NCBI GenBank assembly: GCA_964632045.1
Contig: CAZWBB010000004.1
Span: forward strand, 18,615 to 82,614
Direction of reading: 5' to 3'
Length of the DNA stretch: 64,000 bases
DNA from: an uncultured Methanosarcinales archaeon
GTDB lineage: Archaea > Nanobdellota > Nanobdellia > Woesearchaeales > GW2011-AR9
The notes beneath the pieces are model-generated. The model saw nothing but the letters and a program-made list of their open reading frames with translations, was not told where the DNA came from and ran no database searches. Positions 5,977 to 48,840 of this stretch are shown piece by piece. How positions within the stretch are numbered: the stretch's first letter is position 1; each line of letters starts with the position of its first letter. A program made the translations under genes and the position numbers.

Positions 5977-6843
5977 TCTTTCATAAAAGAGCTTCCTATC
6001 AAAATCGTAAAATGCAGTTATATTACCTCCTTCCATGGGTATACAATATAAAATATCGCCTTGTTTCCCACGTTCTTTTGTCAACCTGACCTCTTGTCCC
6101 TTGAAAATATCTGGAAACAAAAATGCTCCTACCGTGAGAGGATCACACAGTCTGAAAGAATCCCTTCCAGTGTAGGATAGGAAACAATCCGCTAATCCAG
6201 AGACGGCATCATGTAATTTTGACTTATTTGCTTTACTTCTAATCACTGCTGGATTTAGAAATAGGTCGTAAGTGATGTCACGAGGAAGCAGGGAGATCGG
6301 AATGTTCTGAGACGTAACATATTCAAAGGCCTTCCGGTCCCTCACGTAATTATGTTCTGGTTTGTGCAAATTATATTTGTTTCGGTAAAGCACTCCGCCC
6401 ATAAGGTAAATAGAATTGATTTTTGGAGCTATTGAGGGGTCTTTTAGTAGAGCATTTGCAAGATTTGTATTAGGTGCGAGAGAGATTAGATTGATTTCCT
6501 GAGGACTTTTGTGTATAGAGTCTATTATGAAATCAATTCCTTTGTCAGATATTCCAAACTCTACATCTTGCTCTTGCAAGTCCTTGTCAGAAAGGAATGA
6601 ATAGTCATAAACTGAGATGTAGTTCCCTTTTTTCTTCTTCAACTGGCCATCGTAGAAGACAGGAATCTCCTGTTTACCTGCCAGGTTGAGAATTTTCCTG
6701 GCAAATTTTGCTTTATCCCTAATATCTTCCTTTGTTGTGATGATCCCTTCCACTTGTATTTCAGGGGAATTGATTGCTAGAAGCATTGCTAGCAAGTCGT
6801 CAAAATCTCCACCAATATCCGTATTTATGATTACCTTTTGCAT
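5959..6843 (-). CDS. Inosine-uridine-preferring nucleoside hydrolase family protein
   Basis: N-terminal INTDIGGDFDDLLAMLLA matches the DTDPGxDD aspartate cluster of IU-nucleoside hydrolases. Length 294 aa. Its 3' end overlaps the giant ORF convergently by 18 nt. Confidence 0.6.
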   Translation of the reverse strand: MQKVIINTDIGGDFDDLLAMLLAINSPEIQVEGIITTKEDIRDKAKFARKILNLAGKQEIPVFYDGQLKKKKGNYISVYDYSFLSDKDLQEQDVEFGISDKGIDFIIDSIHKSPQEINLISLAPNTNLANALLKDPSIAPKINSIYLMGGVLYRNKYNLHKPEHNYVRDRKAFEYVTSQNIPISLLPRDITYDLFLNPAVIRSKANKSKLHDAVSGLADCFLSYTGRDSFRLCDPLTVGAFLFPDIFKGQEVRLTKERGKQGDILYCIPMEGGNITAFYDFDRKLFYERLIRLL

Positions 6844-7556
6844 ATTCTTTCTTTTGGTATTAGGCTGATGTAATTAATCCTTTCATTCTCTAGGGAGTCA
6901 GTAATGTTGCCTGAATGAATATGTAATACCCCTAGCAACTGGAATATTTTTGCTTGCTCTTCTAGCTTCTTGTAATTTCTTGTTGTGCCATTAATTAGAG
7001 GGATAATTCCTGTTGCTTTATGATAGCAGAAGTTCTCATCCCTCATTTGAAAAGTATCCATGTAATCCTGAACAGCTTGGTGATAAAGAGGATCTTCCCT
7101 ACAATAGTTCTCTTCTGCAAGCTTAAGTGCATTGGACGCTATCATGAACTCTGCTACATATTTATCCTTGTCATTGAAGATTGTCCTAATGCATTTTTCT
7201 ACAAGAAGTGGTTTTAACTTCCCAAAAAGGTTGTTATTATGGTAGTGTTCATACAATATCTCGATAGGTCCTCTCCCTTCACACATCAGCAAGTCCTTAT
7301 TGGATAAGTTTGGCCGCAGGATGTGAATCAACCTATCCTCTTGGTTGATTTTCTTGTCATTATGGCTAAAACCAAGCAAAACAACCGAAGGTGCTTCTCC
7401 TGAAACAGAATGTATGATATAACCATTCTGGTGGGCGGTCTCTACGAGCTTTTGTGAAAAAGGATCCAGCTCAAAGAAGTCAAAGTCTATTTCTTTTGGC
7501 TCAGAGTGTAGGTTTGCTTCTAGTTCCAGTAATTTAGTAACAATGTTGGGTTTCAT
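6831..7556 (-). CDS. Hypothetical protein (241 aa). Its C-terminal 50 aa are duplicated as a fragment at 8676-8867.
   Basis: Long ORF with an ATGA overlap to the upstream ORF. No recognisable motif. Confidence 0.45.
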   Translation of the reverse strand: MKPNIVTKLLELEANLHSEPKEIDFDFFELDPFSQKLVETAHQNGYIIHSVSGEAPSVVLLGFSHNDKKINQEDRLIHILRPNLSNKDLLMCEGRGPIEILYEHYHNNNLFGKLKPLLVEKCIRTIFNDKDKYVAEFMIASNALKLAEENYCREDPLYHQAVQDYMDTFQMRDENFCYHKATGIIPLINGTTRNYKKLEEQAKIFQLLGVLHIHSGNITDSLENERINYISLIPKERICKR

Positions 7557-8675: not shown

Positions 8676-8867
8676 TCACAGTATATCTGGATTAGGCATT
8701 AAACACAAGTAAGAAATATCTTCTTTTTCCAGGAAGTTGTTGATGTTCCCTGCCAAAGCATGGACACGACCTACCAACTGAAAGATTCTTCCTCCCTCCA
8801 ATTTCCTATAATTATGAGTGGTGCCAAGTATAAGTGGAATTATTCCGCTGGATTGATGGTCGCACAA
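8676..8867 (-). pseudogene. Truncated paralog fragment: 63 aa, about 55% identical to the C-terminus of the 6831-7556 protein
   Basis: SGIIPLILGTTHNYRKLEGGRIFQLVGRVHALAGNINNFLEKEDISYLCLMP compared with TGIIPLINGTTRNYKKLEEQAKIFQLLGVLHIHSGNITDSLENERINYISLIP. Confidence 0.4.
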
Positions 8868-9673: not shown

Positions 9674-10447
9674 GTGAATATGAAACCTCTTAATCAAGAG
9701 ATTATCGATGGGTGGGTCGTGCTTTTGCAGGAAGCTAGCTATGCTGGGTCCAAGAAAAAACAGATAAGAGAAGGTTATGAGCAACGTTTCGGTGAAGAAA
9801 ACTGGTCGAAAGGACATTATTATGACGAAAAGATCCTCTCCCGTGATGAAACCTATTCTGTCTATGAGGACGGCTACTTCCATTTTCTGAATGACAATCA
9901 GGACATCCTAGAATGGCTTGTAACAACTGCATGTGAAGTTTATGACATCGCTCCCTCCAATGTAGATTCCGGTTTGGATTATTCCGTCCAGGAATGCAAA
10001 GCTACTCACTTACAGGATATTTCAGTGAGAAGAGTAATGAAGCGCTTGGGAAAAGAGTTCCAGGGTGATCATCTGGTGCAGATAAGAGGTCATACTTCTG
10101 AAGGTTACATCCTGAATCCAGGGAAAGTCCCTTTTCACAAACCAGAACTGATACTTCATTCAGACAGGAAGAGCTGGTGGGATAAGGATTCAATAGAAGA
10201 TTTCTATCAGTCCAACAAAGCTCTTTTAGTCAATCCGGAAGTGCTGTCCCTAAGGCCTGTGATTCGGTGTCCTGATGGAGATACTATTTACAGCTACGAT
10301 AAACGAACGTATTATCGCATCTCTGAAGAGCAACCTAGGTTGTTGTGGATAATCAAAGGCAAGAAAGCGCGTCGGCTTCTGCATGAGGATAAGAGGTATA
10401 AGAGATTGCGTGGTGAGGAAAGGAAAGCATATTCTTGTTCTTTGTGA
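9674..10447 (+). CDS. Hypothetical protein (257 aa)
   Basis: Long ORF; no recognisable motif. Confidence 0.45.
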   Translation: MNMKPLNQEIIDGWVVLLQEASYAGSKKKQIREGYEQRFGEENWSKGHYYDEKILSRDETYSVYEDGYFHFLNDNQDILEWLVTTACEVYDIAPSNVDSGLDYSVQECKATHLQDISVRRVMKRLGKEFQGDHLVQIRGHTSEGYILNPGKVPFHKPELILHSDRKSWWDKDSIEDFYQSNKALLVNPEVLSLRPVIRCPDGDTIYSYDKRTYYRISEEQPRLLWIIKGKKARRLLHEDKRYKRLRGEERKAYSCSL

Positions 10448-10454
10448 TTTATGA

Positions 10455-10525
10455 TGACATACCCCGTCGCTCCCGCAGCAAAGCGAGGATTCAAAACGCA
10501 TGGTCGTTTTGTAAGTGGCGGGGTT
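10455..10525 (+). ncRNA. Candidate structured RNA, copy A. A 9-bp closing stem (10461-10469 paired with 10514-10522) encloses two hairpins.
   Basis: Closing stem CCCCGUCGC/GUGGCGGGG. Hairpin 1 is UCCCGC-AGCAAA-GCGAGGA with a bulged A. Hairpin 2 is AAAACG-CAUGGU-CGUUUU. The G-U pairs occur only on this strand. Confidence 0.4.
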
Positions 10526-10569
10526 GGCAGCATGACCAAAAACAGCACCGCAAAATGGTGGCGTTGTAT

Positions 10570-10640
10570 CGTCATACCCCATTGCTTCCGCAACGGAGTG
10601 AGGATTGAAAACGCGTAGTCGTTTTGTAAGCGGTGGGGTT
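10570..10640 (+). ncRNA. Candidate structured RNA, copy B (tandem paralog of copy A, 115-bp period)
   Basis: Same three helices as copy A with compensatory changes. The closing stem is CCCCAUUGC/GCGGUGGGG (G-C becomes A-U, plus wobble swaps). Hairpin 1 is UUCCGC...GUGAGGA (C-G becomes U-G, G-C becomes G-U). The loop sequences differ. Confidence 0.4.
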
Positions 10641-10763
10641 TTTGATTTTACACATAGGGTGTGCTTTAGAATATTCTGATCATTGCTAAACAGAAAAAAT
10701 AAAACCGAAAGAATTTAAAAGAGATCATCCTCCAACCATAAAAAATCAGACGAGGTCATTATC

Positions 10764-12227
10764 ATGGAACCAAAAATGGGACCACCATCAGAACTGAAGA
10801 AGATTAGCAATACCATCTGGGAGCTACCAACAACTTTCAAAAATGGGATGAGAGTTCCTGGAAGAGTCATAGCAACCGAAGAACTGATCCAATCGATGGA
10901 TGCAGGAGTATTCCAACAACTGAGCAACGTCGCAACCTTGCCGGGAATCCAGAAGTATGCATACTGTATGCCCGACGGTCATTGGGGCTACGGATTTCCC
11001 ATCGGAGGAGTGGCTGCTTTTGACATCAATCAAGGGGGAGTGATCTCACCTGGAGGAGTTGGATTTGATATAAATTGCGGCATCCGTATGATGACTACCA
11101 ACCTTTCAGTGGATGAAGTCAGGCCACGGATCAAAGAAATTGTTGATGCTCTTTATATGAAAGTTCCCGCGGGAGTAGGCTGCAAAGGTTTCGTACAGAT
11201 GGACAGGGAAGAATTCAAAGAAGTATTGAGAGATGGCGGAGCTTGGTGTCTGAAGAAAGGATATGCTACGGAGCATGATGTTGCTCATATCGAGGATAAA
11301 GGGAAGATTCCTGGAGCTGATCCCAGTAAAGTATCTGACAAAGCTATCAGCAGGGGATTCAGGCAAGTGGGCACTCTAGGCAGCGGGAATCATTTCCTGG
11401 AGATACAGCAGGTCAAAGAAGAGAACATTCATGACAAAGAACTTGCTGCAAAGATGGGCATTACTGGAGAAGGGCAGGTTGTGATCATGGTGCACTGCGG
11501 TAGCAGGGGATTAGGTCATCAGATAGGAACAGATTATCTACGCAGGTTCCTTGATGTGATGCCAAAATATGGGATCAGTATCCTGGACCGAGAGTTGGCC
11601 TGTGCCCCTTTTAATTCTCCAGAAGGCAAGGATTACTACGGTGCTATGGCCTGCGCCGCTAACATGGCCTTCGTCAACCGACAGGTGATCACTCATCGCA
11701 TCAGAGAAGTACTGAACCGCTTGTTTGATAAAGAAGTAGAAGTAAAGCTTGTCTATGACGTCTGCCACAACATCGCTAAGGTAGAGAAACACATCATCGA
11801 TGGGGAGGAAAAGGAATTGATCGTCCATCGTAAAGGTGCAACCCGCGCCTTCGGCCCATCTCGAGCAGACGACCTTCCTGAAGATTTCAAAGAGATCGGC
11901 CAACCAGTAATCATCGGTGGCTCCATGGAGACCGGTTCCTGGCTGCTGGTAGGGACGGACGGAGCAGAAGAGACTTTCGCTTCTACAGCACACGGAGCAG
12001 GAAGAGTGATGAGCCGCATGGCAGCGAAAAAGAAGTACCAGGGAGAAGAGCTGCAGAAAGACATGGAGAAGAGAGGGATCTACGTGCATGGTGTTACGAT
12101 GAAAGGTCTGGCTGAAGAAGCAGGTGGGGCATACAAAGATGTTGACATGGTCATCGATTCTCTGGCTAAAGCAGGTATCACTAAACCGGTTGTTGCACTG
12201 AAACCGATCGGGAATGTTAAGGGATGA
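10764..12227 (+). CDS. rtcB: RNA-splicing ligase RtcB (tRNA-splicing ligase)
   Basis: 487 aa. The N-terminus and the GVGFDINCGIR, HCGSRGLGHQIG and HGAGR motifs are typical of RtcB. Confidence 0.9.
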   Translation: MEPKMGPPSELKKISNTIWELPTTFKNGMRVPGRVIATEELIQSMDAGVFQQLSNVATLPGIQKYAYCMPDGHWGYGFPIGGVAAFDINQGGVISPGGVGFDINCGIRMMTTNLSVDEVRPRIKEIVDALYMKVPAGVGCKGFVQMDREEFKEVLRDGGAWCLKKGYATEHDVAHIEDKGKIPGADPSKVSDKAISRGFRQVGTLGSGNHFLEIQQVKEENIHDKELAAKMGITGEGQVVIMVHCGSRGLGHQIGTDYLRRFLDVMPKYGISILDRELACAPFNSPEGKDYYGAMACAANMAFVNRQVITHRIREVLNRLFDKEVEVKLVYDVCHNIAKVEKHIIDGEEKELIVHRKGATRAFGPSRADDLPEDFKEIGQPVIIGGSMETGSWLLVGTDGAEETFASTAHGAGRVMSRMAAKKKYQGEELQKDMEKRGIYVHGVTMKGLAEEAGGAYKDVDMVIDSLAKAGITKPVVALKPIGNVKG

Positions 12228-12461: not shown

Positions 12462-12713
12462 TTGAGAAAGAGAATTCTAACTTTGTTGGAGGAGGCGAGA
12501 AATGAATATATTTCTTTCACAGTATTGAAGAAGAGGAAGGAAGAGACCCTTCCAATGATACTTAAACAAAGCGCAGACAAAAGAAAGCGATACACATACT
12601 ATTCACAGGAAAGGGATCTACCAAAGGATGATGAGCAGTTGAGTGAAGCGAAAGTATTTTTGGAGTGTGTAGTTAAGCCTTTCTTATCAATAATGGAGAA
12701 ACTAAAGTGTTGA
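12462..12713 (+). CDS. Hypothetical small protein (TTG start, 83 aa; or only 52 aa if it starts at the internal ATG at 12555). Doubtful gene.
   Basis: ORF only. Overlaps the next gene by 7 nt. Confidence 0.2.
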   Translation: MRKRILTLLEEARNEYISFTVLKKRKEETLPMILKQSADKRKRYTYYSQERDLPKDDEQLSEAKVFLECVVKPFLSIMEKLKC

Positions 12714-13291
12714 TAGAACCAATACTTGGATACAAATCCACTTGGAGAATATTAAGCTTGCTGTTGGAAACACCCAGGAAGCTGGTGAGCAGAAAGGAGC
12801 TTTTTGAATTTACACACCTGGGAAATGAACCTTTAAGTAGAGGTCTGAGTAGGCTGGTCAAAGCAGGATTTCTGATTAGGGAAAAGAATGGTAGAAAAGA
12901 GTTTTACTATGTAAATATTGCAAATGACTACATGGTATTGGCGAAAGAGTTGTGGGAGAAGGAGAGGAGAAGAACCAGGAATCTGGATTATGAAATAAAA
13001 CTGATTGTTTCTGAGTTTGTGCGAATAGTATTGGAATTTCCAGATATTAGAAAAGTAATTTTGTTTGGTTCTCATGCAAAAGGAACCGCTTCTGTAAGAT
13101 CGGACATTGATTTGGCAGTAATCTTTGCTGATGAAAAGAGGGAAGAAACAGAGATTACGAGAATTGTGAAAATCTTGGAAGAGAAATTCAATAAGGAAAT
13201 ACAGGTGCACAGTTTAACTGAGAAGAGTTTTGTCGGAAAAAGTAAGTTGGTTGCCGAGATTAGGAAGGAAGGGATTGTGTTGTTGGGTTAA
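12707..13291 (+). CDS. Winged-helix DNA-binding domain fused to a minimal nucleotidyltransferase (pol-beta superfamily) domain
   Basis: N-terminal transcription-regulator-like HTH (ILSLLLETPRKLVSRKELFEFTHLG...LSRLVKAGFLIREKNGRKEFY). The GSHAKGTASVRSDIDLAV segment matches the GS-x9-13-DxD nucleotidyltransferase signature. Confidence 0.6.
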   Translation: MLIEPILGYKSTWRILSLLLETPRKLVSRKELFEFTHLGNEPLSRGLSRLVKAGFLIREKNGRKEFYYVNIANDYMVLAKELWEKERRRTRNLDYEIKLIVSEFVRIVLEFPDIRKVILFGSHAKGTASVRSDIDLAVIFADEKREETEITRIVKILEEKFNKEIQVHSLTEKSFVGKSKLVAEIRKEGIVLLG

Positions 13292-19074: not shown

Positions 19075-20154
19075 TCACACCTTCTGCACGTACTTAAACT
19101 GATTGAAGATTATGATCGAGTCGTAACTGATGATGTTTTCAGAGAATTCAGTCCTGATCTCATCGATGATTCGATGAAAGTCAGCATTGTCTCTGGCAAA
19201 GACGCTTAAGTGATAGTCCCACCTGCCGATCATCTTAATGTACCACACAACGTTAGAATGATATTTAAGGAAAGTGAAAAATTTTTCTTTGTTGAGGTGT
19301 TTAAACTTAAAAAAAACCTTCCACCACTGATAACCCATTTGGCTTAGTGAGGCCAGAGGCATGAATCGCTTGATCACCCCGGATAAGATCATCTTCTTTA
19401 TCCGGTTATCAACGGCTACAGGAGCCAGGTTCACCTTCTCTGAGATGTGCCTGATACTTGCCGCTGCCTCGAGCTTAAGAAGTTCCAGTATCTCTTTGTC
19501 TTTTCTGTCCAATTTCACCTGACTGTGGTCCCCCTTAGAGGCTTCGAATTCTTTCTGAAAAGTAGAACCCTTACGTTCTGAGATGTTGAGTTGACTGCAT
19601 TCTTCTCCCCTGAGTATGAAATCCAATCCCAGGAAATCTTCCTCCAATATTTCGAGGATGTCATACCCATGGATCACATGGTGATAATCATCAATGATGT
19701 TATCCAACAACTGCACAAATTCTTCCTCTTGCCTGACGCTTGCCAGGATCTGGATATCGTAACTGCCAGAACAATTTTTCAATCGTGTTATCTGATCAAA
19801 ATCAAACAGGAAGTCGATCAATTTTTTCTCGTCTGAGAGCGTCTTCAGTTTAATGTATATCAGATAATTCCTCAACCCAAGCCGACGATGGTCTAGTAAA
19901 GTAAGATTGCCGTAGAGGAAATTGCTTTCCATCATCCTTTTGATACGATAGGCTACCGTTTCTCTTTTCAGTCGCAGCTTCTTGGCGATAGCTGTATTGC
20001 TGTAGCGGGCATTCTGGTGGAGAATGTACAGGATTTTTTTGTCTACAAGATCCAACTTGATTGCCTCTCTTACCTTTCCATCTGCATACCTGTTGTATTC
20101 CCTCACTTGTCCTATAAATTTGTTTTGAGACATATCTTTACACAAAGCAAACAC
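19075..20154 (-). CDS. Tandem-duplicated Lrp/AsnC-family transcriptional regulator (two HTH+RAM units). The likely true start is the ATG at 20133.
   Basis: DKKILYILHQNARYSNTAIAKKLRLKRETVAYRIKRM, then a second unit DRKDKEILELLKLEAAASIRHISEKVNLAPVAVDNRIKKM. MSQNKFIGQV aligns with the N-termini of the two paralogs. Confidence 0.65.
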   Translation of the reverse strand: MFALCKDMSQNKFIGQVREYNRYADGKVREAIKLDLVDKKILYILHQNARYSNTAIAKKLRLKRETVAYRIKRMMESNFLYGNLTLLDHRRLGLRNYLIYIKLKTLSDEKKLIDFLFDFDQITRLKNCSGSYDIQILASVRQEEEFVQLLDNIIDDYHHVIHGYDILEILEEDFLGLDFILRGEECSQLNISERKGSTFQKEFEASKGDHSQVKLDRKDKEILELLKLEAAASIRHISEKVNLAPVAVDNRIKKMILSGVIKRFMPLASLSQMGYQWWKVFFKFKHLNKEKFFTFLKYHSNVVWYIKMIGRWDYHLSVFARDNADFHRIIDEIRTEFSENIISYDSIIIFNQFKYVQKV

Positions 20155-26954: not shown

Positions 26955-28010
26955 CTACTCCACCCGAGGCTCAAACTTATACTGATTGAAGATTAGGATA
27001 GAATCATAATAATTTATCCCCTCCTTAAACTCATCTCTTACTTCATTAAGCACTCGGTGAAATTCTTTATTATCTCTGGCGAAGATACTCAACTGGTAGT
27101 TCCACTGGCCGATACACTTGACGCACCACTCAATGTTGTTATGCTGTTCTGCATAACTGTACAAGCGACTGTCTTTCACTCCCACCAGATTAAGGAACAC
27201 CGTGAACCATTGATGACCTAGAGCAGAGAAAGAGACAAGCGGAGTAAAGGATTTGATGACCCCCTGAGAAACAAGGTTTCCCATTCGAAGCTTGACAGAG
27301 TTTGGAGCCACTCTAACTTGGTCAGAGATTTCCTTTAATGTTGCCCGGGCGTTGAACTTCAGCAGAGACAAGATTTGTCTGTCAGTATCATCGATTTTGA
27401 TCACACCATTATATGGTTTAAGTTTATCCCGTTCCCCAAATTCCTTGGCGAAAGCAGAGCCTTTCCTTTCCGCTATATTCATCTCCTGCAGCAGTTCAGA
27501 AGAGGGTTCGTCAAAGATCATCATGTTACCTGCCGGGTCCTCTCTCAGAAAATTCAGTATCACATACTCTCTCACTGCAGAAGCATGCTCCTGCAAAAAA
27601 TTGTTGATGAACGCCTCGAATTCTTCCAGGCTTCTGGTAGTTACATCAAAAGCCAAATCATATCTTCCGCTGCAGGCAGATAGAATGGTAATCTCCTCCC
27701 TGCTGATCAGATCCTCTATCATCTTCTCTTCATGGGTTACTTTCACTAACTTCAATAAAACATTGAAAGTCATAAAACCCAGTTTGCGCGGATCGAGAAG
27801 AGTAAGGAATCCGGTAATGATCTTCCTCTTGCGAAGCTGGGAGATTCTGTAAGCAACAACTTCCCGGCTTAGTTTGAGAGATTTAGCTAGGGCAGTGTTA
27901 GAGATACGGCAGTTCCTGGAAAGGATGTACAAAATCTTCTTATCTAACAAATCCACTTTTTGGGGCATGACATCCTGTAATACCTGCCCTCTAAAAATAT
28001 CTGTGTTCAT
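26955..28010 (-). CDS. Tandem-duplicated Lrp/AsnC-family regulator, paralog 2
   Basis: DKKILYILSRNCRISNTALAKSLKLSREVVAYRISQL, then a second unit DDTDRQILSLLKFNARATLKEISDQVRVAPNSVKLRM. Confidence 0.65.
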   Translation of the reverse strand: MNTDIFRGQVLQDVMPQKVDLLDKKILYILSRNCRISNTALAKSLKLSREVVAYRISQLRKRKIITGFLTLLDPRKLGFMTFNVLLKLVKVTHEEKMIEDLISREEITILSACSGRYDLAFDVTTRSLEEFEAFINNFLQEHASAVREYVILNFLREDPAGNMMIFDEPSSELLQEMNIAERKGSAFAKEFGERDKLKPYNGVIKIDDTDRQILSLLKFNARATLKEISDQVRVAPNSVKLRMGNLVSQGVIKSFTPLVSFSALGHQWFTVFLNLVGVKDSRLYSYAEQHNNIEWCVKCIGQWNYQLSIFARDNKEFHRVLNEVRDEFKEGINYYDSILIFNQYKFEPRVE

Positions 28011-35523: not shown

Positions 35524-36567
35524 TTACTTAACATAAGAAACATACTGTGGATTCCTGAACACAGGCAGACTTTCGATATGACTTATCCCTTCTCCAAACT
35601 GCTGGCATAATTCCTGCAGGATGTCTGACAGATGGGCGTTATGTTTGACGAAGAAACTTAATTTGTAGTTATAATCCCCAAGATACTTGGTGCACCAGAC
35701 AATGTGCGGGTGCTGCTCAGTCCAAGTTTTGAATGCTGTCTCCACCCCCTGCTTTACATTCAGAAATACAAAGTTGAACTGCAATCCAAGGTGGGCAAGT
35801 GCTGCGTAGCAGATGAAACCATGGATGACATCTTCTTTTATTAACTTCCTGATCCTGTTCTGCAGCTGGAAGACGCTGATACCGGTCTTCTTGGACAGAT
35901 CTGTCAAAGGAATCCGTGCATTCAATTTCAGTTCATCAAGAATAACTTTGTCTGTATGATCGATTTTGATCATTTCTCTGCTGATGTTCTGCATGTCAAA
36001 TTCTTTCTGGAAGGCACTACCTTTCCGCTCTTTGATCTTATTGAGATAATCCCGGTCTTTCTTTTCATCTACGAGCATCTTCAGTCTCATGAAACGCTGC
36101 TCGAGACGGGTTAGGATGTTATAATTCTTGATCTTGTCTCCATGACGAAGCAGCAGGTTATGGAAGACATCATAACAGGTATGTTCATCCTTGGCCATTA
36201 TGGTAAGGATGATGTCATGCATCCCCCCACATTGAAAAACAGAACTTATTTCCGGGATGGTCTTAATGTCATTTACAACATCGTCAACCTTGACTGTAGT
36301 ATTGACCTTCAGCCCCACTCCCTTAGAACACAGACCTACTTTTTGCACATTGATCAGAGTCAGATAACCATGGATGATTTTAAGCTCCTGCATCCTTTTG
36401 ATGCGGTAAGCCACCACTTCCCTCCCTATCTTAAGATGTTTGGCGATGGTCGTATTTGAGAGTCTGGCATTGCATGAAAGCAGGTACAAGATCTTTCTAT
36501 CTATTAGGTCCACTTTTTCCTGTTTGACCTTTACCTGCAATTGACCTATAAATTCTTCGCCGTTCAT
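35524..36567 (-). CDS. Tandem-duplicated Lrp/AsnC-family regulator, paralog 3
   Basis: DRKILYLLSCNARLSNTTIAKHLKIGREVVAYRIKRM, then a second unit DHTDKVILDELKLNARIPLTDLSKKTGISVFQLQNRIRKL. Confidence 0.65.
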   Translation of the reverse strand: MNGEEFIGQLQVKVKQEKVDLIDRKILYLLSCNARLSNTTIAKHLKIGREVVAYRIKRMQELKIIHGYLTLINVQKVGLCSKGVGLKVNTTVKVDDVVNDIKTIPEISSVFQCGGMHDIILTIMAKDEHTCYDVFHNLLLRHGDKIKNYNILTRLEQRFMRLKMLVDEKKDRDYLNKIKERKGSAFQKEFDMQNISREMIKIDHTDKVILDELKLNARIPLTDLSKKTGISVFQLQNRIRKLIKEDVIHGFICYAALAHLGLQFNFVFLNVKQGVETAFKTWTEQHPHIVWCTKYLGDYNYKLSFFVKHNAHLSDILQELCQQFGEGISHIESLPVFRNPQYVSYVK

Positions 36568-38117: not shown

Positions 38118-38307
38118 GAAGCTCACTTGGTTACTTGGACTTTCTGCTCTGGCATATGGAGGTTGCGATCTGACTGGCAGCGATGATGACCTCTACTCGC
38201 AGGATGCTGGAGGTTTCATAGAGATGGATGGTGTCAGCCACAATTCGGGGGACGGGGGAGAGTGGGGCAGGGAGGATCGAGGTTTCCGCTGCTGCGTAGA
38301 CATTTGA
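38080..38307 (+). CDS. Small secreted protein (75 aa) ending in RGFRCCVDI, the same tail as the next gene
   Basis: Signal LLGLSALAYGGCDL; C-terminal ...DRGFRCCVDI. Confidence 0.4.
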   Translation: MMIMIGDTMMTSRKLTWLLGLSALAYGGCDLTGSDDDLYSQDAGGFIEMDGVSHNSGDGGEWGREDRGFRCCVDI

Positions 38308-38321
38308 ACGAGGTAAATAAA

Positions 38322-40400
38322 ATGCTTGAAAAAATATTGAAGATCGGTCTGACCACCGCTGTTTTAGGGATTGGAGCATTAACCTACAGTGCATGCGGCG
38401 TGAATAGTTTTGAAGGAGACGGACAGATAGATATTGGTTATAGTACTATAGATGCTGGTTATGTCCAGGATGTATCAGGCAACGATAACGTTGTTGTATG
38501 CAGTGATAAAGATATGGATGGATTTGCTGATAATGCTGGTTGTGGGACACAAGTTGATTGCAACGACAGAGATGCGGAAATCAATCCAGGTAAAGCAGAG
38601 CTTCCAGACGGAGTTGACAATAATTGTGACGGACAGATCGATGATGATTTTTCCGTACGGTATGATGATTTTGATGATCATCCTGAGAATTTTCAGACCG
38701 GACCTTGTTCTTTTGACCACACTCCAATCACCTATGCTTTCGACAATTTTACCCCGGACATGAATGGTGTAGATGTCCAAGCTTCGTTTTCGAGAGCTTT
38801 TTCCCTATGGGAGAATCAAACCAGCCTGAGGTTCGAAGAGATTGCAAGTGTGGGTGAAGCGGACATTGTGATTCTGTTTGATACGTTTGGGCACACGTGG
38901 AGCGATGGTAACGCTTGTTTTCCTTTTGACGGCCCATATGATGTATTGGCCCATGCCTATCATCCGTGCTATTCTTCCCCCATCACGGAAGGCCATTTTG
39001 ATGACTCTGAAGACTGGACAGATGACATTAGGAATAGTGTATATCAACCGATTGATATGGATACAGTTGCAGCACATGAGATTGGTCACATGTTGGGACT
39101 ACATCATTCAGATGTTGATACGGCATTGATGGCTCCTTTATATGTTGGTTCGCACCGTTATCTTGACCAGGATGACGTAGATGGTATTCAGGCACTGTAT
39201 CCTGGGGACTTGCCCCCTCCATGCAATGATGACGATGGTGATGGCTATGGGAATCCAGGGATCTATTCCTGCCGATTAGGGGAGCAGGATGACTGCGATG
39301 ACTCAAATGTTGCTATTCATCCCAATGCGGATGAACTCTGTGACCTTCTGGACAATGACTGCAATGGATTAGTCGATGAGGATCCAGATAACTGGAGTTC
39401 AGACTGTGGCTCATGTCTTGATACAGATGGAGATGGTTACGGCGAGTTGGGATCAAATTTGTCAAGTTGTCTATATCCAAATCAGGTTGATTGTAACAAC
39501 GATAACGCGGATATGTATCCTGGTGCTCCAGAATTTTGTGACGCAAAAGACAACAACTGCAATGGTGAGATAGATGAAGACCCTGGCTTCTATAATAACT
39601 GTGGAAGTTGCGGTCCTGATGAGCTTGGAATTGGTGATACCTGTGGAGAGTGTGGATCTGTTCAGTGCAGAAACGGAGGTGGAGTAGAATGTAATGATCC
39701 ATGTGAATGTCCCGGTCACCCTGAGATGATCCGGAAAGGAGATTATTGCATCGATAAATGGGAAAATTCTGTGTGGAGCAGTTCTCAGTGTAATGGAAGG
39801 CAGTGGGGATTGGGAAGGGATGATTGGCTAGGGGAATTTCCAGTAAATGTTCACAGCAGGGGATTGGTCCGTGGGGGAAATACGCATTGGCCGAGCTATT
39901 GTTGCATAGATGCAGGTGTGATGCTCTATGCCTGTTCAAAGGCAGGAGTGATCCCAGCTTATCAAGTTACCTGGTTCAGAGCAAGAAAGGCTTGCGAGAA
40001 TTCCGATAAGAGACTCTGTACCAGAGAAGAGTGGGTTGATGGCTGTGATGGTCAGGTTGGAGACGGTGGCTGTGAATATGGTACAAACTCATGCGACAGT
40101 CTCCCAGATGGTGTGTGTAACCTGCAGGATGGGTTAGGTCAGATCGCCCCGACTGGTTCATTTCAAGGTTGCAGAAGTGCAGGGGGTGCCTTTGATATGA
40201 CCGGGAATCTGTCAGAAGTGTTTGAAGACCATTTCATCCAGCATGGTAACAAGTACAGGAATTACTGTACAAGTACTGGGTACGACTGGCCGTTTGACCA
40301 AAACCATATACACGACTGCAGCACAGAGGGTGAAAGCTGTCGCAGTGATGCAGGCATGGTCGAGAATCATCGGGGTTTCAGATGTTGTGTTGATCTTTAG
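38322..40400 (+). CDS. Secreted lipoprotein: MopE-like Cys/Asp repeats, a matrixin (MMP-like, M10) zinc metalloprotease domain and a C-terminal FGE-sulfatase-like domain
   Basis: VAAHEIGHMLGLHHSDVDTALMAPLY has the metzincin HExxHxxGxxH plus the Met-turn ALMxPxY as in MMPs. Several CDDxDxxIxPxAxExCDxxDNDCNGxxDE repeats. C-terminal GAFDMTGNLSEVFED resembles the FGE-sulfatase GNxxEW motif. Ends ...HRGFRCCVDL. Start taken at MLEKIL (38322); the ORF is open from 38262. Confidence 0.7.
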   Translation: MLEKILKIGLTTAVLGIGALTYSACGVNSFEGDGQIDIGYSTIDAGYVQDVSGNDNVVVCSDKDMDGFADNAGCGTQVDCNDRDAEINPGKAELPDGVDNNCDGQIDDDFSVRYDDFDDHPENFQTGPCSFDHTPITYAFDNFTPDMNGVDVQASFSRAFSLWENQTSLRFEEIASVGEADIVILFDTFGHTWSDGNACFPFDGPYDVLAHAYHPCYSSPITEGHFDDSEDWTDDIRNSVYQPIDMDTVAAHEIGHMLGLHHSDVDTALMAPLYVGSHRYLDQDDVDGIQALYPGDLPPPCNDDDGDGYGNPGIYSCRLGEQDDCDDSNVAIHPNADELCDLLDNDCNGLVDEDPDNWSSDCGSCLDTDGDGYGELGSNLSSCLYPNQVDCNNDNADMYPGAPEFCDAKDNNCNGEIDEDPGFYNNCGSCGPDELGIGDTCGECGSVQCRNGGGVECNDPCECPGHPEMIRKGDYCIDKWENSVWSSSQCNGRQWGLGRDDWLGEFPVNVHSRGLVRGGNTHWPSYCCIDAGVMLYACSKAGVIPAYQVTWFRARKACENSDKRLCTREEWVDGCDGQVGDGGCEYGTNSCDSLPDGVCNLQDGLGQIAPTGSFQGCRSAGGAFDMTGNLSEVFEDHFIQHGNKYRNYCTSTGYDWPFDQNHIHDCSTEGESCRSDAGMVENHRGFRCCVDL

Positions 40401-40430
40401 GAATGTTCAATAGATACAAGGGGAAAGCTT

Positions 40431-41894
40431 ATGTCAAAATTGAAAGAAATCATCTATAGTTTTGGAGCAGTAGCTCTCTTGATGGGAGCAACTTCCTGTG
40501 ATGATGGTCAGGAATTGGACAGTTCCCGTGAATTTGAGAAGATTGAGGATGCAGGGGTTGCTTATGACAGTACGGAGCAGGGGGAAGTGCCTAACCTGGA
40601 TATTGGCGATCTCCCCGGCGAGTTAACAGTCTGCTGGAGGGATGAAGATGGAGATGATTATCCAGCTAAAGGAAAACAGATAAGGACAAGGTATGAATGT
40701 CCTGAAGGAACAGCTGAAGCGGAGTGCACGGATCATCCCAGCTGCTTCGACTGTGATGATAGTGATGAGCGCATAAATCCCGGGGCGCAAGAGATATGTA
40801 ACGGGATCGATGATGATTGTGATGGTGTGATTGATGGTAATCTGACCAGGCAATGCCACTCAATCTGTGGAGAGGGACTTGAGTATTGCATCGATGGAGA
40901 TTATCAGGACTGCGATGCTCGTGTTCCTAGTGATGAGGTATGCGACGGTATTGACAATGATTGTGATGGTGAAACCGATGAAGGACTATTTGAGTTGTTC
41001 TTTCGGGATCATGATCAGGATGGCTATGGGAATCCGAATGATACGATAGAAGCATGCCAGTGTCCTGACGGGTATACACAAGACAATACAGATTGCGATG
41101 ATGATAATCCTTTTGCCCATGAGTATATCACATGTATCCATGATGAGAACCGCTGTGGATCTTTCCAGCTCTGCATAGATCCTTGCCCACCCCCTCCCGA
41201 AGAAATCTGCGATGGGATAGATAATGATTGCAATGGTTTGATTGATGAGATTGAATGCTGTGAGGAAGGTGATGTGAGAGATGTGGTTGAATGTCCACCT
41301 TCACCTCAAAGTTTTGTATTTGTAATTGATAATTCGGGAAGTATGCGTGAGAGGAGTGATCCTAATTATGTGCGGTATGCTGGTTTGAGGGGGTTTGTCG
41401 AACTTATGGATGATGAGGATGAGGCAGCAATAATTGCTTTTACTAATAACATGCAGGTCTATTGTGGTAACTTCTCTTCTGATCGTGACGCTCTGATGGA
41501 TTGCATCACCCAGGCAAGACAGTTTAGTCTGGGTGGAAGTACGGACATTGATCCGCCAATGTATCAAGCAATTGATATTGTGTCAGGAAGAAATAACCGC
41601 AAAATAATCATACTTCTTACTGATGGTGTTGACGCTAATGGTGATTATGACGCTGATAATATTCGCATCACTGCAGAAAATAGGAGAGCAACAATATACG
41701 CTTTGGGTTTTGGAGAGGCTGATGAGGAAGCACTAAGGCAGACTATTACTGCCGATGGAAGTTATTCTTTGATTAATAATGCTGAGGAAATTCCTGGCTT
41801 GTATGAACAAATCTTTCAGCATAGTAATTATGAGTCGTGGAGAGAGTGTGATAGAAATGGTATGTGGATAGAAAGACAGGGGGAGTGTGAATAA
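40431..41894 (+). CDS. Lipoprotein with MopE-like Cys/Asp repeats and a C-terminal von Willebrand factor A (vWA) domain
   Basis: Lipobox LLMGATSCDD. Repeats CDDSDERINPGAQEICNGIDDDCDGVID. vWA MIDAS motif FVFVIDNSGSM...ILLTDG. C-terminal SWRECDRNGMWIERQGEC. Confidence 0.7.
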   Translation: MSKLKEIIYSFGAVALLMGATSCDDGQELDSSREFEKIEDAGVAYDSTEQGEVPNLDIGDLPGELTVCWRDEDGDDYPAKGKQIRTRYECPEGTAEAECTDHPSCFDCDDSDERINPGAQEICNGIDDDCDGVIDGNLTRQCHSICGEGLEYCIDGDYQDCDARVPSDEVCDGIDNDCDGETDEGLFELFFRDHDQDGYGNPNDTIEACQCPDGYTQDNTDCDDDNPFAHEYITCIHDENRCGSFQLCIDPCPPPPEEICDGIDNDCNGLIDEIECCEEGDVRDVVECPPSPQSFVFVIDNSGSMRERSDPNYVRYAGLRGFVELMDDEDEAAIIAFTNNMQVYCGNFSSDRDALMDCITQARQFSLGGSTDIDPPMYQAIDIVSGRNNRKIIILLTDGVDANGDYDADNIRITAENRRATIYALGFGEADEEALRQTITADGSYSLINNAEEIPGLYEQIFQHSNYESWRECDRNGMWIERQGECE

Positions 41895-43726
41895 TGATTA
41901 AAAATATCATATATTCAGTGGTTGGATTAACTCTCTTATCTGGATGCGGTGATATGAGCCGTCCAATGGACCATTCAATTGATGAACCAGAAGTGAAGAA
42001 TGATACTGAAAAGGACGATGTAAATTCCAACGTAGACTACTATTTTAATGGTGACTTGGTTGATAGGATTGCTGGTGACAAAAATCAGCTGAATCCGTAT
42101 GACTTCAGAAACGAGAATGGAAATGCACCTACTTTTCCTGATTACAACAATGGTTGGAAAGAGCGGGTAATTGCATGTTTCCTGGATGCTGATGGAGATG
42201 GTTATGGAATAAAAGAGATCCAGATAAGAGATGTTGAATGCCCTCCTGGCTATGCTGGATTCAACGGTCTGTTTGATTGCGATGATGACAATGAACTTAT
42301 CTATCCTGATGCCCAAGAGTTGTGTGATTATTGGGATAATGATTGTGATGGTCTTATTGATGAGGATTGTCTATGCAGGATGGAAGAGGGAAAATTATGC
42401 GGCAGCAGTGATGTTGGAGAATGCCGCTATGGAATACAGGTATGTGATTTATATGGAGACTGGGGAGAGTGCGATTGCAATGTCGAGCCGGCAGAGGAAG
42501 TATGCGATGGATTGGACAATGATTGCGACGGCAGGGTGGATGAAGGTGTACAGGCAACGTACTATGAGGATGAGGATGGAGACAGTTTTGGTAATGCGCA
42601 AGTGGAAGTCAATCACTGCTTTCTACCGGAAGGTTACGTCGAAAATATGCTGGATTGCGATGATGGCAATGCAGATATCTACCCTGACGCTCCGGAGTTG
42701 TGCGACTACTGGGACAACGACTGTGATGGTGAGACGGATGAAGATTGCGTCTGTATCAAAGGAGAGACACAACAGTGCGGTAGGATTGACATCGGGGAAT
42801 GTGAATACGGCACTCAAACATGTGACATTAATGGGGGCTGGGGTGAGTGTATAGGCAGGATCGTCCCCAGATCAGATTTCTGTGACGGGCTGGACAATGA
42901 TTGTGATGGGGAGACTGATGAAAGATATAATGCAGGAGAAGTCTGTTACACAGGAAGGGGGGAATGCAGAAGAGAAGGGATCTTTCATTGCACAGAAAAC
43001 ACGATAGACACTATTTGTGATGCCATCGCCGGTGAACCAGGAGAAGAATTTTGTGGAGATGATCTTGATAATGACTGTGACGGAAGAACTGATGAAGATT
43101 GCTGTCGGCAGGGAATGATCAGAGATGTTGTTAGGTGCCCTTATTTTCCACATAGTTTCTCTTTTGTAATCGACAACTCCGGGAGTATGTTAAGTAATGA
43201 TCCAACTAATATCAGATATCGTGGTTCGCACGACTTTGTGAATTCGATGCGCAATACAGACGAAGCAAGCGTCATGGTTTTCGCAAGAAGACATGAGGTT
43301 GTATGTGGTTTCACTTCTGACAAAGAAGATCTTAGAGATTGCTTTATTGAAGCAGAGAACTATGATGTTGACAGTGGTGCAACTAATATTGGTCCTGCTT
43401 TATCAGATGCGATAGATGACATCTCTTTGAGAATTGCAAGAAAAGTGATCATCCTCCTAACAGATGGAGATAGTGATTATAATGAGAACTCGATGAGGAT
43501 AAGGGCTGAGCAGAATGGGATTAGCGTTTACACTCTTGGGCTGGGTGCCGCGGACGAACAGAGTCTCATGGCAACAGCAACACCGGATGGTGGATACTTT
43601 GGCATCGATGAAGTAGAAGAGATTCCTGCTCTTTACAACCGGATCTTCCGGGAAAGAAGGAACCAGTCGTGGGAATCATGCAACGAGCGCGGGATGTGGG
43701 TAGAAAGGAGGGGAAATTGTCGATGA
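41894..43726 (+). CDS. Lipoprotein with MopE-like repeats and a vWA domain (paralog)
   Basis: Lipobox LLSGCGD; six or more DNDCDG repeats; FSFVIDNSGSM...ILLTDGDSD; C-terminal SWESCNERGMWVERRGNC. Confidence 0.7.
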   Translation: MIKNIIYSVVGLTLLSGCGDMSRPMDHSIDEPEVKNDTEKDDVNSNVDYYFNGDLVDRIAGDKNQLNPYDFRNENGNAPTFPDYNNGWKERVIACFLDADGDGYGIKEIQIRDVECPPGYAGFNGLFDCDDDNELIYPDAQELCDYWDNDCDGLIDEDCLCRMEEGKLCGSSDVGECRYGIQVCDLYGDWGECDCNVEPAEEVCDGLDNDCDGRVDEGVQATYYEDEDGDSFGNAQVEVNHCFLPEGYVENMLDCDDGNADIYPDAPELCDYWDNDCDGETDEDCVCIKGETQQCGRIDIGECEYGTQTCDINGGWGECIGRIVPRSDFCDGLDNDCDGETDERYNAGEVCYTGRGECRREGIFHCTENTIDTICDAIAGEPGEEFCGDDLDNDCDGRTDEDCCRQGMIRDVVRCPYFPHSFSFVIDNSGSMLSNDPTNIRYRGSHDFVNSMRNTDEASVMVFARRHEVVCGFTSDKEDLRDCFIEAENYDVDSGATNIGPALSDAIDDISLRIARKVIILLTDGDSDYNENSMRIRAEQNGISVYTLGLGAADEQSLMATATPDGGYFGIDEVEEIPALYNRIFRERRNQSWESCNERGMWVERRGNCR

Positions 43727-45789
43727 TGATGAAAGAAGGGATTGGAATGATCCTGTATGGGGTTGCAGGACTGGCTGCCCTGGTTGGTTGCGAAAGCGAA
43801 GCTCCTCGTTATGGGGTGGTGGCAGATGCAGGAGCGGATGCAGAATTTACTGAAGTAAATGATGCAGGTATGGATAAAAGGATGGATATTAGCACAGATA
43901 CAAGAATTGGTACTGCAGGAAATGCAGAACATGATTTTGATATTGGTGCTAGAAACGTGCTTGCCTGTTTCAAAGACTGGGATGGAGATGGTTTCCCAGT
44001 CAAGGAAGATCAAGTCTGGGATGAGATCTGTCCGGAAGGATACATTCAATATGATCGAAGGGCCTTTGATTGTGATGATGAAGATGCTCATAGACATCCT
44101 GGGGTTGTGGAGTTATGTGATGGGGTAGATAGTAATTGTGATGGGGCTGTGGATGAGGGCTGTTATTGTATAACAGGAGAATCCCAAGTGTGTGGAAGTA
44201 CTGATGTCGGACAGTGTACCTACGGCTCTCAAACATGCGATGTATATGGACGATGGAGTGAATGTGAAGGCAATGTTGAACCTTCTGAAGAGGTGTGTGA
44301 TATTCGCGATAATGACTGCGATGGTGGGATAGATGAAGGTACAAAAATAGTGGCCTGCAGGGACAGAGATCACGACGGCTTCGGAGACCGTTTTGAATTT
44401 ATCGAAACTTGTGAGCATTTGATAGGAACTCCTCCTTTAGGCGGTTATGTGGTTGACTGCACCGATTGTAATGATCATGAGAGTGACATAAATCCAGAAG
44501 CGGTAGAACTTTGTGATCTTCGCGACAACAATTGCGATGGTGAAGTAAATGGAGGCTTCCCTGACTGGGGGCAACCATGTGCTGTGGGGGTGGGAGGATG
44601 TCAAAGGGAGGGAGTAAATAATTGTAGTGAGGACGGGCTGGAGGTGATTTGTAGTGCTGTTGAAGGACAGCCAAGTGAAGAAATATGTGATGGGATAGAT
44701 AACGATTGCGATGGTATCTTGGACAATAATGAGATAGAATACGTGCAGCTAACTGAACATTGTCCCCCTGATTTGGTGGAGGACAAAAGGCCGTTGTTTT
44801 CCCCGGATGGTTCAACAATCGCTTTCTTAAGGTACGCTGAGAGAAGATATGAAGGGGTGTTTGTAATAGATATTGATGGAGAGAATGAGAGGAAACTATT
44901 TGATGGTTTTGGCAGATATGTCTGGCATCAAGACGGAAGTAAATTATACTTTGCATCTGAATCAGATAACACAGTCAGCTCTATCGATACAGATGGAAAT
45001 AATAGAAGAGAGCTACTGCAGCTTAATACTAATGTGAAAGCAATCTTTCACAACAACGGAGATCTGTTAGTAGCGTATCAGCAAGACCAAAATTTTCAAA
45101 TACGTTCAATTAACTCTGGGATGGATATCTTTAGTGAATTACTTCCGCAGGTGAATGAGATATACATATCTCCTGATGGATCAAAATGTGTTTTTCATAT
45201 CTATGCGGGATTCTGTCCAGAAGCAGACTGTTATCGTTATCACCTCTGGAATCGACATACGGATGAGTTCCGGCAAATGACGGATAATCTACCCTATTTA
45301 CTCGCAACAAAAGATTTTTGGTTTCCTGATAATATCAGGTTTGCTTTCACAAAGTCGGTAGACCAAGATGATCCCGGATTTGTACCAGGTCAACCTGATC
45401 TTATTCCTCAAGTGATAGACACCAACACTGGGATTATTCAGGATTTGATTGTTAGGAATTGTATTGGTGAAAGAGGAGAGGAAAAACCTTGTGGTGGTGC
45501 ATTACTTGGTATCTCTGGTGATGGCCAGAAAGTTTTTCTTAATGGATTTGTAGGGGGGGCATTTCTAAGAGAGGGGATTCTAGGGGGGGCATTTAATCTC
45601 TACTTCCCTGAAGTTGATCAAGGGATGATCTCAGATCTGGCATTCCTCTGGAATCCAATTGACTTTTCACCGGATAGCAGGTCATTGGTAAGTTCAAATA
45701 ATCCTTTCCATCATTGTTATGGACTGTTCAAACTCACGCTTCCATACAATCCAGAGATTGATTATGAACCATATTGGTTGAGTTTATGA
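43723..45789 (+). CDS. Lipoprotein with MopE-like repeats and a C-terminal TolB/PD40-like beta-propeller
   Basis: Lipobox LVGCESE; repeats CDGVDSNCDGAVDEG and similar. SPDGSTIAFLRYAE...IDIDGENERKLFDG...WHQDGSKLYF resemble PD40 repeats. Start overlaps the upstream stop codon (ATGATGATGA). Confidence 0.6.
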   Translation: MMMKEGIGMILYGVAGLAALVGCESEAPRYGVVADAGADAEFTEVNDAGMDKRMDISTDTRIGTAGNAEHDFDIGARNVLACFKDWDGDGFPVKEDQVWDEICPEGYIQYDRRAFDCDDEDAHRHPGVVELCDGVDSNCDGAVDEGCYCITGESQVCGSTDVGQCTYGSQTCDVYGRWSECEGNVEPSEEVCDIRDNDCDGGIDEGTKIVACRDRDHDGFGDRFEFIETCEHLIGTPPLGGYVVDCTDCNDHESDINPEAVELCDLRDNNCDGEVNGGFPDWGQPCAVGVGGCQREGVNNCSEDGLEVICSAVEGQPSEEICDGIDNDCDGILDNNEIEYVQLTEHCPPDLVEDKRPLFSPDGSTIAFLRYAERRYEGVFVIDIDGENERKLFDGFGRYVWHQDGSKLYFASESDNTVSSIDTDGNNRRELLQLNTNVKAIFHNNGDLLVAYQQDQNFQIRSINSGMDIFSELLPQVNEIYISPDGSKCVFHIYAGFCPEADCYRYHLWNRHTDEFRQMTDNLPYLLATKDFWFPDNIRFAFTKSVDQDDPGFVPGQPDLIPQVIDTNTGIIQDLIVRNCIGERGEEKPCGGALLGISGDGQKVFLNGFVGGAFLREGILGGAFNLYFPEVDQGMISDLAFLWNPIDFSPDSRSLVSSNNPFHHCYGLFKLTLPYNPEIDYEPYWLSL

Positions 45790-45836
45790 AAATGAAAAAA
45801 TGTGTGATTTGAGGATCATACTATTGGAGGAATAAA

Positions 45837-48806: not shown

Positions 48807-48840
48807 GACCAATTGAGCATCAGATAGGGGAGGTATAAAA

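Follow-up and report, generated by a model that had tools for sequence, protein, structure and literature searches.

Introduction

In bacteria, an operon layout is found in which rsr, two Y RNA genes (YrlA and YrlB), rtcB and rtcA lie together. The bacterial Y RNAs YrlA and YrlB have been described, and in M. smegmatis a single precursor is processed into both of them (PMC4201824). The locus presented in this study is similar in that two candidate genes for small structured RNAs stand in tandem beside rtcB, with their ends paired in a long terminal stem. However, it departs from the YrlA/YrlB arrangement in that its host is archaeal, a Ro60/Rsr (TROVE) gene and T-arm/D-arm mimicry of tRNA are both lacking, and the element is found without rtcB association in other genomes. 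Additionally, the sequence of the terminal stem varies between the copies, so that no Ro-binding helix is offered.

Tandem-aptamer riboswitches (such as those for glycine, or NAD+-I at nadA) are a second point of comparison, as they also place two similar structured domains between genes, in the orientation of the gene that follows. However, the units reported here lie upstream of the promoter of the downstream gene and are followed by a T-run, and they are not consistently associated with one gene family, match nothing in Rfam and do not covary significantly. Archaeal lineage-specific and 3'-UTR-derived sRNAs share several traits with the units, being ~70-120 nt long, closed by a stem, ended by oligo-U, located directly 3' of a coding gene, devoid of a recognisable promoter of their own and narrow in phylogenetic range. 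What is unusual for a vertically inherited sRNA is that the element occurs in two unrelated contexts and is absent from close relatives; it is also known here from sequence alone. Finally, REP/BIME sequences, MITE-like elements, the PATEs derived from IS200/IS605 ends, and attC sites resemble the units in being short, structured, strand-specific in their pairing, patchy, intergenic and placed at synteny breaks. In contrast to these, the units are two adjacent copies in 64 kb, lack attC cores, and have a stem that covaries instead of conserved inverted repeats; no transposase or integrase gene lies nearby in the window.

Results

All positions given here are those of the window, by which we mean the whole 64-kb stretch of DNA that was analysed. 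A repeat search of the window returned one direct-repeat family with two copies of 68 nt, at 10458-10525 (unit 1) and 10573-10640 (unit 2), both on the + strand. The units are 82% identical, are spaced 115 nt start to start, and lie in the 316 nt that separate the stop codon of a 257-aa gene (10447) from the ATG of rtcB (10764) in a Woesearchaeota-like archaeal genome. A 31-nt core pattern allowing up to 3 mismatches matched at both units and nowhere else in the 64 kb, where shuffles lead one to expect 0 matches. A covariance model run with filters off scored units 1 and 2 at 94.9 and 96.7 bits and found no third copy in the window. The two similar units 115 nt apart that had been described in a sequence-only reading of this DNA are borne out by these results.

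Unit 1 starts 10 nt past the stop codon of the 257-aa gene. It consists of CAUA and a closing stem of 9 bp (10462-10470/10515-10523) around hairpin 1 (10471-10489), UUC, hairpin 2 (10493-10510) and GUAA, and no T-run comes after it. Unit 2 has the same plan, with CAUA, a closing stem again of 9 bp (10577-10585/10630-10638), a candidate hairpin 1 with a bulged A (10586-10604), UUG, hairpin 2 (10608-10625) and GUAA. The 47-nt spacer between them (10526-10572, + strand) holds a small hairpin, CACC-GCAAAAU-GGUG. This spacer is unlike the sequence 3' of unit 2, and the 5' flanks of the two units have just CAUA in common. Flanks and spacer cannot be aligned and the similarity stops at the limits of the stem-closed unit, so that the conserved segment and the structural unit are one and the same.

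Two simple origins of such a repeat were rejected. If it were a coding repeat, the units would be read in different frames, as a spacing of 115 nt puts them out of register, and reading on in the frame of unit 1 leads to a stop in unit 2. If it were a palindromic transcription-factor operator (AAAACG-N6-CGTTTT), the outer covarying stem would be left unexplained, and no other copies of the palindrome are present in the window.

JGI metagenome contigs, in a collection that does not include the window's own JGI contigs, were scanned with an exact 22-base pattern. The scan matched one other organism, on two overlapping Woesearchaeota-type contigs (L085 and L086). This outside copy, called the L085 copy below, is single and matches unit 2 at ~88% identity, the TTTTTSATTTT tail included. 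Its neighbours are a divergent 82-aa gene on one side and a lipoprotein-like gene on the other, and the 4.7 kb of sequence collected there contain no rtcB. At rtcB loci the element was present in 0 of 80 cases, which covered related and other organisms with RtcB 60-76% identical. It was also missing from contigs with homologs of the 257-aa protein (57-61% identity), which counts against reading the units as a small RNA, and a genome-contig search with the 257-aa protein found nothing. In relatives of the L085 organism, recognised by a 193-aa neighbour that is 79-90% identical, the 193-aa/82-aa gene pair is kept and the element is absent. Such absence at the same locus in close relatives is a pattern also expected of a mobile or decaying element, and again argues against a small RNA. 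A structural descriptor applied to all collected loci gave no new members, pattern scans of IMG/VR and blastn against phages and plasmids gave chance matches or none, and no targets complementary to the invariant core were found in the collected sequences. The single 28-bit match, on contig L021, is antisense to a 290-aa ORF that contains it, and was judged to be chance. The sparse matches and their changing contexts suggest that the element is rare or patchy and non-syntenic, where 'rare' is meant cautiously given the make-up of the scanned collection.

Both units can accommodate the helices proposed from the sequence, and the 21 proposed pairs are canonical throughout. The 12 differences between unit 1 and unit 2 fall in loops (5), the junction (1) and stems (6). 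When the substitutions were relocated at random, all pairs were kept in 0.4-1.4% of trials (p ~0.004-0.014), values that err on the optimistic side, the structure having been derived from the very sequences tested. With the L085 copy added as a third sequence, a single pair is changed on both sides (closing stem, G-C to A-U), one-sided wobble changes are seen in 6 pairs, and hairpin 2 is invariant. The covariation score of the three sequences was reached by 161 of 500 column shuffles and is not significant. The compensatory differences described in the sequence-only reading are real insofar as the pairs stay canonical, but only one pair has changed on both sides, and the description of the structure as supported by covariation goes beyond these data. 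The G-U pairs had also been read as a sign of the + strand, and the folding energies agree, being lower on the + strand (-30.0 and -23.8 kcal/mol for units 1 and 2) than on the - strand (-24.6 and -18.6 kcal/mol). Both lines of evidence favour the + strand.

The shared three-way junction that had been proposed is the dominant fold in unit 1 only, where helix probabilities are ~0.99 and the minimum free energy is -30 kcal/mol (z -3.5). In unit 2, hairpin 1 has a probability of ~0.01 and hairpin 2 of ~0.1, and the junction (-19.9 kcal/mol) lies 3.9 kcal/mol above the minimum, a rod of -23.8 kcal/mol. For the L085 copy the junction is 14 kcal/mol above the minimum. ViennaRNA and RNAalifold both prefer a rod-like fold for unit 2 and the L085 copy. 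In the RNAalifold rod, 'hairpin 1' contributes its 5' half and 'hairpin 2' its 3' strand to one helix, and this fold has a double change of its own (C-G to U-A, columns 27/45). The three sequences offer 1-2 double changes, and two inner folds compete. In each of the three the closing-stem pairs have probabilities of 0.7-1.0. In these models the robust part is the 9-10-bp closing stem only, and the predicted inner fold is ambiguous between junction and rod. Homologs with a preserved structure had been expected if the RNA were real; one homolog was found and the junction is not its favoured fold, which comes close to having no such homolog at all.

A further feature was seen outside the units. 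In the spacer, 15 nt at 10537-10551 (CAAAAACAGCACCGC) are 87% complementary to 10630-10644, which comprises the 3' strand of the unit 2 closing stem and the U tract. At the L085 locus an upstream GAAAAACCC is likewise able to pair with GGGUUUUUC. This complementarity may be a chance product of low complexity, or may give a longer RNA an alternative outer helix.

Contigs from the same species break at the units. In one JGI sample one contig runs up to 10646 and another begins at 10531, and in a second sample a contig start is also at 10531 (the end of L095 and the starts of L003 and L004, window 10531-10646). The two contigs from the same sample overlap by exactly 116 nt, made up of the 3' part of the spacer, unit 2 and T5GAT. 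The longest exact word common to the units is 13 nt, and the unit 1/unit 2 repeat therefore cannot explain this overlap. The breaks suggest that the 116-nt segment may be present in a second context in the population.

This is what would be expected of the main rival to a small RNA, in which the units are a small non-autonomous mobile or selfish element, or the relic of one, of 70-116 bp and without a dedicated cellular function. The pairing would then be the structure needed for mobility, as single-stranded DNA or as RNA. The element is found in two organisms in different contexts, each at a synteny breakpoint, the orthologous locus in close relatives of the L085 organism is without it, and the L085 copy is nearer to unit 2 than unit 1 is (~88% versus 82%). 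Additionally, in contigs L100-L103 an IS200-type Y1 transposase gene (PF01797) is present ~1.2-1.7 kb from the 193-aa gene, in the neighbourhood that holds the element in L085, but nothing element-like was found there or near Y1 transposase genes. However, when the units were tested as a MITE or IS-derived repeat, just two copies were found in the 64 kb and these are adjacent, the contig breaks being a hint of a second context. Apart from the covarying stem, the ends carry no inverted repeats, and no duplicated target site is clear. The stem varies with compensation in a way that ends bound by a transposase do not, and the IMG/VR, phage and plasmid searches contributed no match. A mobile or selfish element is an unlikely explanation of the units, though a serious one.

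Known RNA families did not account for the units. Rfam 15, with its models for riboswitches, ribozymes, Y RNA, C/D, H/ACA, SRP, 5S and others, gave 0 matches at gathering score over the whole 64 kb, and at E<=10 no + strand match in 10300-10800 overlapped either unit. The best nearby match was SNORD96 on the minus strand, with 19 bits against a gathering score of 43, and nothing relevant was found at the L085 locus. ARAGORN found no tRNA or tmRNA in the 64-kb window, and by direct reading the units have no GG/T-psi-C-type loops such as a tRNA, split tRNA or tRNA-like RNA would show. An archaeal C/D box sRNA was rejected: a C-box-like AUGAUGA (10451-10457) is found only 5' of unit 1 and not at unit 2 or the L085 copy, the nearest + strand CUGA (10674) is ~220 nt away from it, and there is no properly placed D box. 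An archaeal H/ACA sRNA was rejected because the stems are followed by UUGGCA, UUUUUG or UUUUUC with no ACA, and there is no paired GA/GA on opposite strands. Direct reading, Rfam and ARAGORN thus agree with the earlier statement that C/D, H/ACA and tRNA signatures are lacking, and the covariance-model check that had been suggested alongside it matched no known family.

Repeat-based systems were also considered. Type III toxin-antitoxin RNA repeats were rejected, as the units are 82% identical with an unrelated 47-nt spacer and the downstream gene encodes RtcB and no endoribonuclease toxin. Integron attC sites were rejected, as no RYYYAAC/GTTRRRY cores are present at the stem bases of unit 2 or the L085 copy and the window has no more copies. 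CRISPR, template and variable repeats of a DGR, hammerhead and other ribozymes, and a K-turn were rejected on their defining features.

The position beside rtcB raises the possibility that the RNA is coupled to RtcB, either as a Y-RNA-like cofactor or decoy or as a ligation substrate, with the tandem units marking off a 115-nt RNA to be excised and circularised. The tandem small-RNA genes next to rtcB do recall the bacterial rsr/YrlA/YrlB/rtcB/rtcA operon, and a long terminal stem would suit such an RNA. Y RNA status was judged by a neighbouring TROVE gene, a tRNA-like module and a conserved Ro-binding helix. However, a scan of 45 window ORFs gave no TROVE/Ro60 protein, a tRNA-like domain is lacking, Rfam families of riboswitches, ribozymes and Y RNAs gave no match at the units, and direct reading found no bulge-helix-bulge splice site in the closing stems. 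Moreover, the element is absent at other rtcB loci, and the L085 copy has no rtcB in its 4.7 kb. The neighbourhood is in the end the only point in favour, and coupling to RtcB is highly improbable.

Transcription signals were sought with a position weight matrix made from 15 window promoters, which have the form RAAAnnTTTAWATA and stand ~22-40 nt 5' of start codons. In the + strand interval scanned (10380-10660, cut-off 4 bits) there was no promoter-like site of at least 4 bits, and neither unit has a recognisable promoter. This leaves independent expression of the units in the window unproven, which weighs against a small RNA. Because there is no promoter-like site between the 257-aa gene and unit 2, the 257-aa gene is the probable source of transcription, which would read through into the units.

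Directly 3' of unit 2 is an oligo-T tract (10639-10649, + strand, TTTTTGATTTT), with a counterpart in the L085 copy (TTTTTCATTTT). Past the stop codon of the 257-aa gene, no T5 run comes earlier than the one at 10639-10643 in this tract, which continues with GATTTT. Archaeal transcription termination requires oligo-T alone, and by analogy we infer that 10639-10649 is a putative termination site of the transcript that bears the units. The end of rtcB has a T10 run.

The promoter of rtcB is found further downstream. A BRE/TATA-like promoter lies at 10707-10722 (+ strand, GAAAGAATTTAAAAGA) and has the same consensus as before ~14 other window genes; it scores 12.2 bits, a value for a site that is itself within the training set of the matrix. 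It is followed by a Shine-Dalgarno sequence (GAGGT, 10752-10756) and the ATG at 10764, so that promoter and Shine-Dalgarno are both downstream of units 1 and 2 and of T5GAT4. At the L085 locus, a quasi-symmetric TATA of 9.9 bits stands 5' of the element and serves the divergent gene too, and the element is followed by a T-run and then by a 12.2-bit TATA 24 nt before the next ATG.

The sequence-only reading had offered a cis-regulatory element of rtcB, a leader with tandem aptamers or a riboswitch, as one of two possibilities. The units are upstream of rtcB and co-oriented with it, the L085 copy is co-oriented with its own downstream gene, and a switch could in principle be built from the two alternative folds and an upstream stretch able to pair with the 3' strand of the closing stem. 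However, the rtcB promoter and Shine-Dalgarno sequence come after the units and the T-run, the element is missing from all 80 rtcB loci, the outside copy is followed by an unrelated gene and lies 5' of that gene's TATA, and no riboswitch family was matched. The leader reading fails both on a position inside the 5' UTR, as deduced from these signals, and on recurrent gene association. The cis-regulatory reading is therefore not supported, and we consider it very improbable.

The same signals bear on another explanation, in which the units are a 3'-end or insulator module whose stem and oligo-U would terminate and stabilise the upstream transcript and shield the downstream promoter. Its targets would be the mRNA of the 257-aa gene in the window and transcription from the divergent promoter at the L085 locus. 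There is no promoter-like site upstream of the units, the first T5 past the 257-aa stop codon comes after unit 2, and T5-N2-T4 closes the block in each of the two organisms, with a consensus TATA for the next gene after it. However, unit 1 has no T-run, the L085 locus has no co-oriented upstream gene, and other window genes end at T-runs without such a block. As oligo-T suffices for archaeal termination, an insulator leaves the conservation of 68 nt across organisms unexplained. An insulator is improbable here.

The genes around the units were also compared. The 257-aa gene (9674-10447, + strand) has no Pfam or PDB match and belongs to a family found in DPANN-type archaea, several members of which are fused to a PF01467 (nicotinate-nucleotide adenylyltransferase-like) domain or adjoin a NUDIX gene. 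In relatives, the homolog of the 257-aa gene is followed by rpoE-spt4-S24e-S27e and not by rtcB. The rtcB gene (10764-12227, + strand) encodes 487 aa (PF01139, E 7e-169), and its product is 72-76% identical to RtcB of Woesearchaeota/Nanoarchaeia MAGs. Directly 3' of rtcB (12462-13291, + strand) is a 194-aa wHTH-Pol-beta nucleotidyltransferase (MNT-like) gene whose start is overlapped by an 83-aa ORF. This pair is followed by a Ser/Thr kinase gene and is present in all contigs of this species. On the other side, a 63-aa ORF (8676-8867, - strand) is 52% identical (E 8e-20) to the C-terminal 63 residues of a 241-aa protein (6831-7556, - strand) and looks like a gene fragment left by local rearrangement. 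In relatives a PHP gene adjoins the 243-aa homolog, and in the window a metallophosphoesterase gene lies in between.

Further away in the window are three paralogous regulators of ~350 aa (19075-20154, 26955-28010 and 35524-36567, all - strand) with two AsnC-type wHTH and an Lrp/AsnC ligand-binding domain, and a similar gene adjoins the 193-aa gene in contig L098. A region at 38262-52046 (+ strand) encodes seven co-oriented large proteins with MopE-type Cu-binding motifs and VWA, M10 peptidase, FGE-sulfatase or beta-propeller domains, and shows strong positive + strand GC skew throughout.

Discussion

We tentatively favour, at somewhat less than an even chance, the reading that the two units are diverged paralogous copies of an orphan module, a small structured RNA encoded on the + strand, with the adjacency to rtcB incidental and the units not forming a leader. 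This corresponds to the other possibility in the sequence-only reading, two copies of a new small RNA. It stays viable, and is preferred, on account of the match to no known family, the pairing on one strand and the oligo-U end, but it is based on only three distinct sequences, with no promoter-like site upstream of either unit in the window.

If the units are such an RNA, the module would be roughly 70 nt long, or perhaps ~116 nt with a 5' extension. The units would be transcribed as the tail of the 257-aa gene transcript, which would end at the oligo-U 3' of unit 2. The terminal stem of 9-10 bp would define and protect the RNA ends, and a partner, protein or RNA, might recognise the invariant segment GAGGAUU-S-AAAACGC-N-U-N-GUCGUUUUGUAAG. 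Both the expression and processing of a discrete RNA and the existence of the partner are what we infer from these features. Judging from the loci collected, the module appears patchy among Woesearchaeota-type archaea, with a genomic context that changes. That it represents an undescribed Woesearchaeota (DPANN) family of stable structured small RNAs is a more doubtful proposition. Such a family would be a relocatable 70-116-nt module that is closed by a stem, ends in oligo-U, has an invariant hairpin-junction core and is here duplicated in tandem.

For the biology of rtcB the outcome of this study is negative. Neither an archaeal counterpart of the Y RNA/rtcB arrangement nor an rtcB riboswitch is supported by gene association or by promoter position, and nothing supports a functional tie of the element to RtcB-type RNA end-joining. 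What remains is a candidate, drawn from three sequences, for either a new small RNA or a repeat of an ordinary kind. To our knowledge, almost no non-coding RNAs have been characterised in DPANN archaea apart from the universal ones. If real, the units would be a lineage-specific structured RNA in this group of archaea, and their patchy distribution in changing contexts would raise the question of how so small a module spreads.
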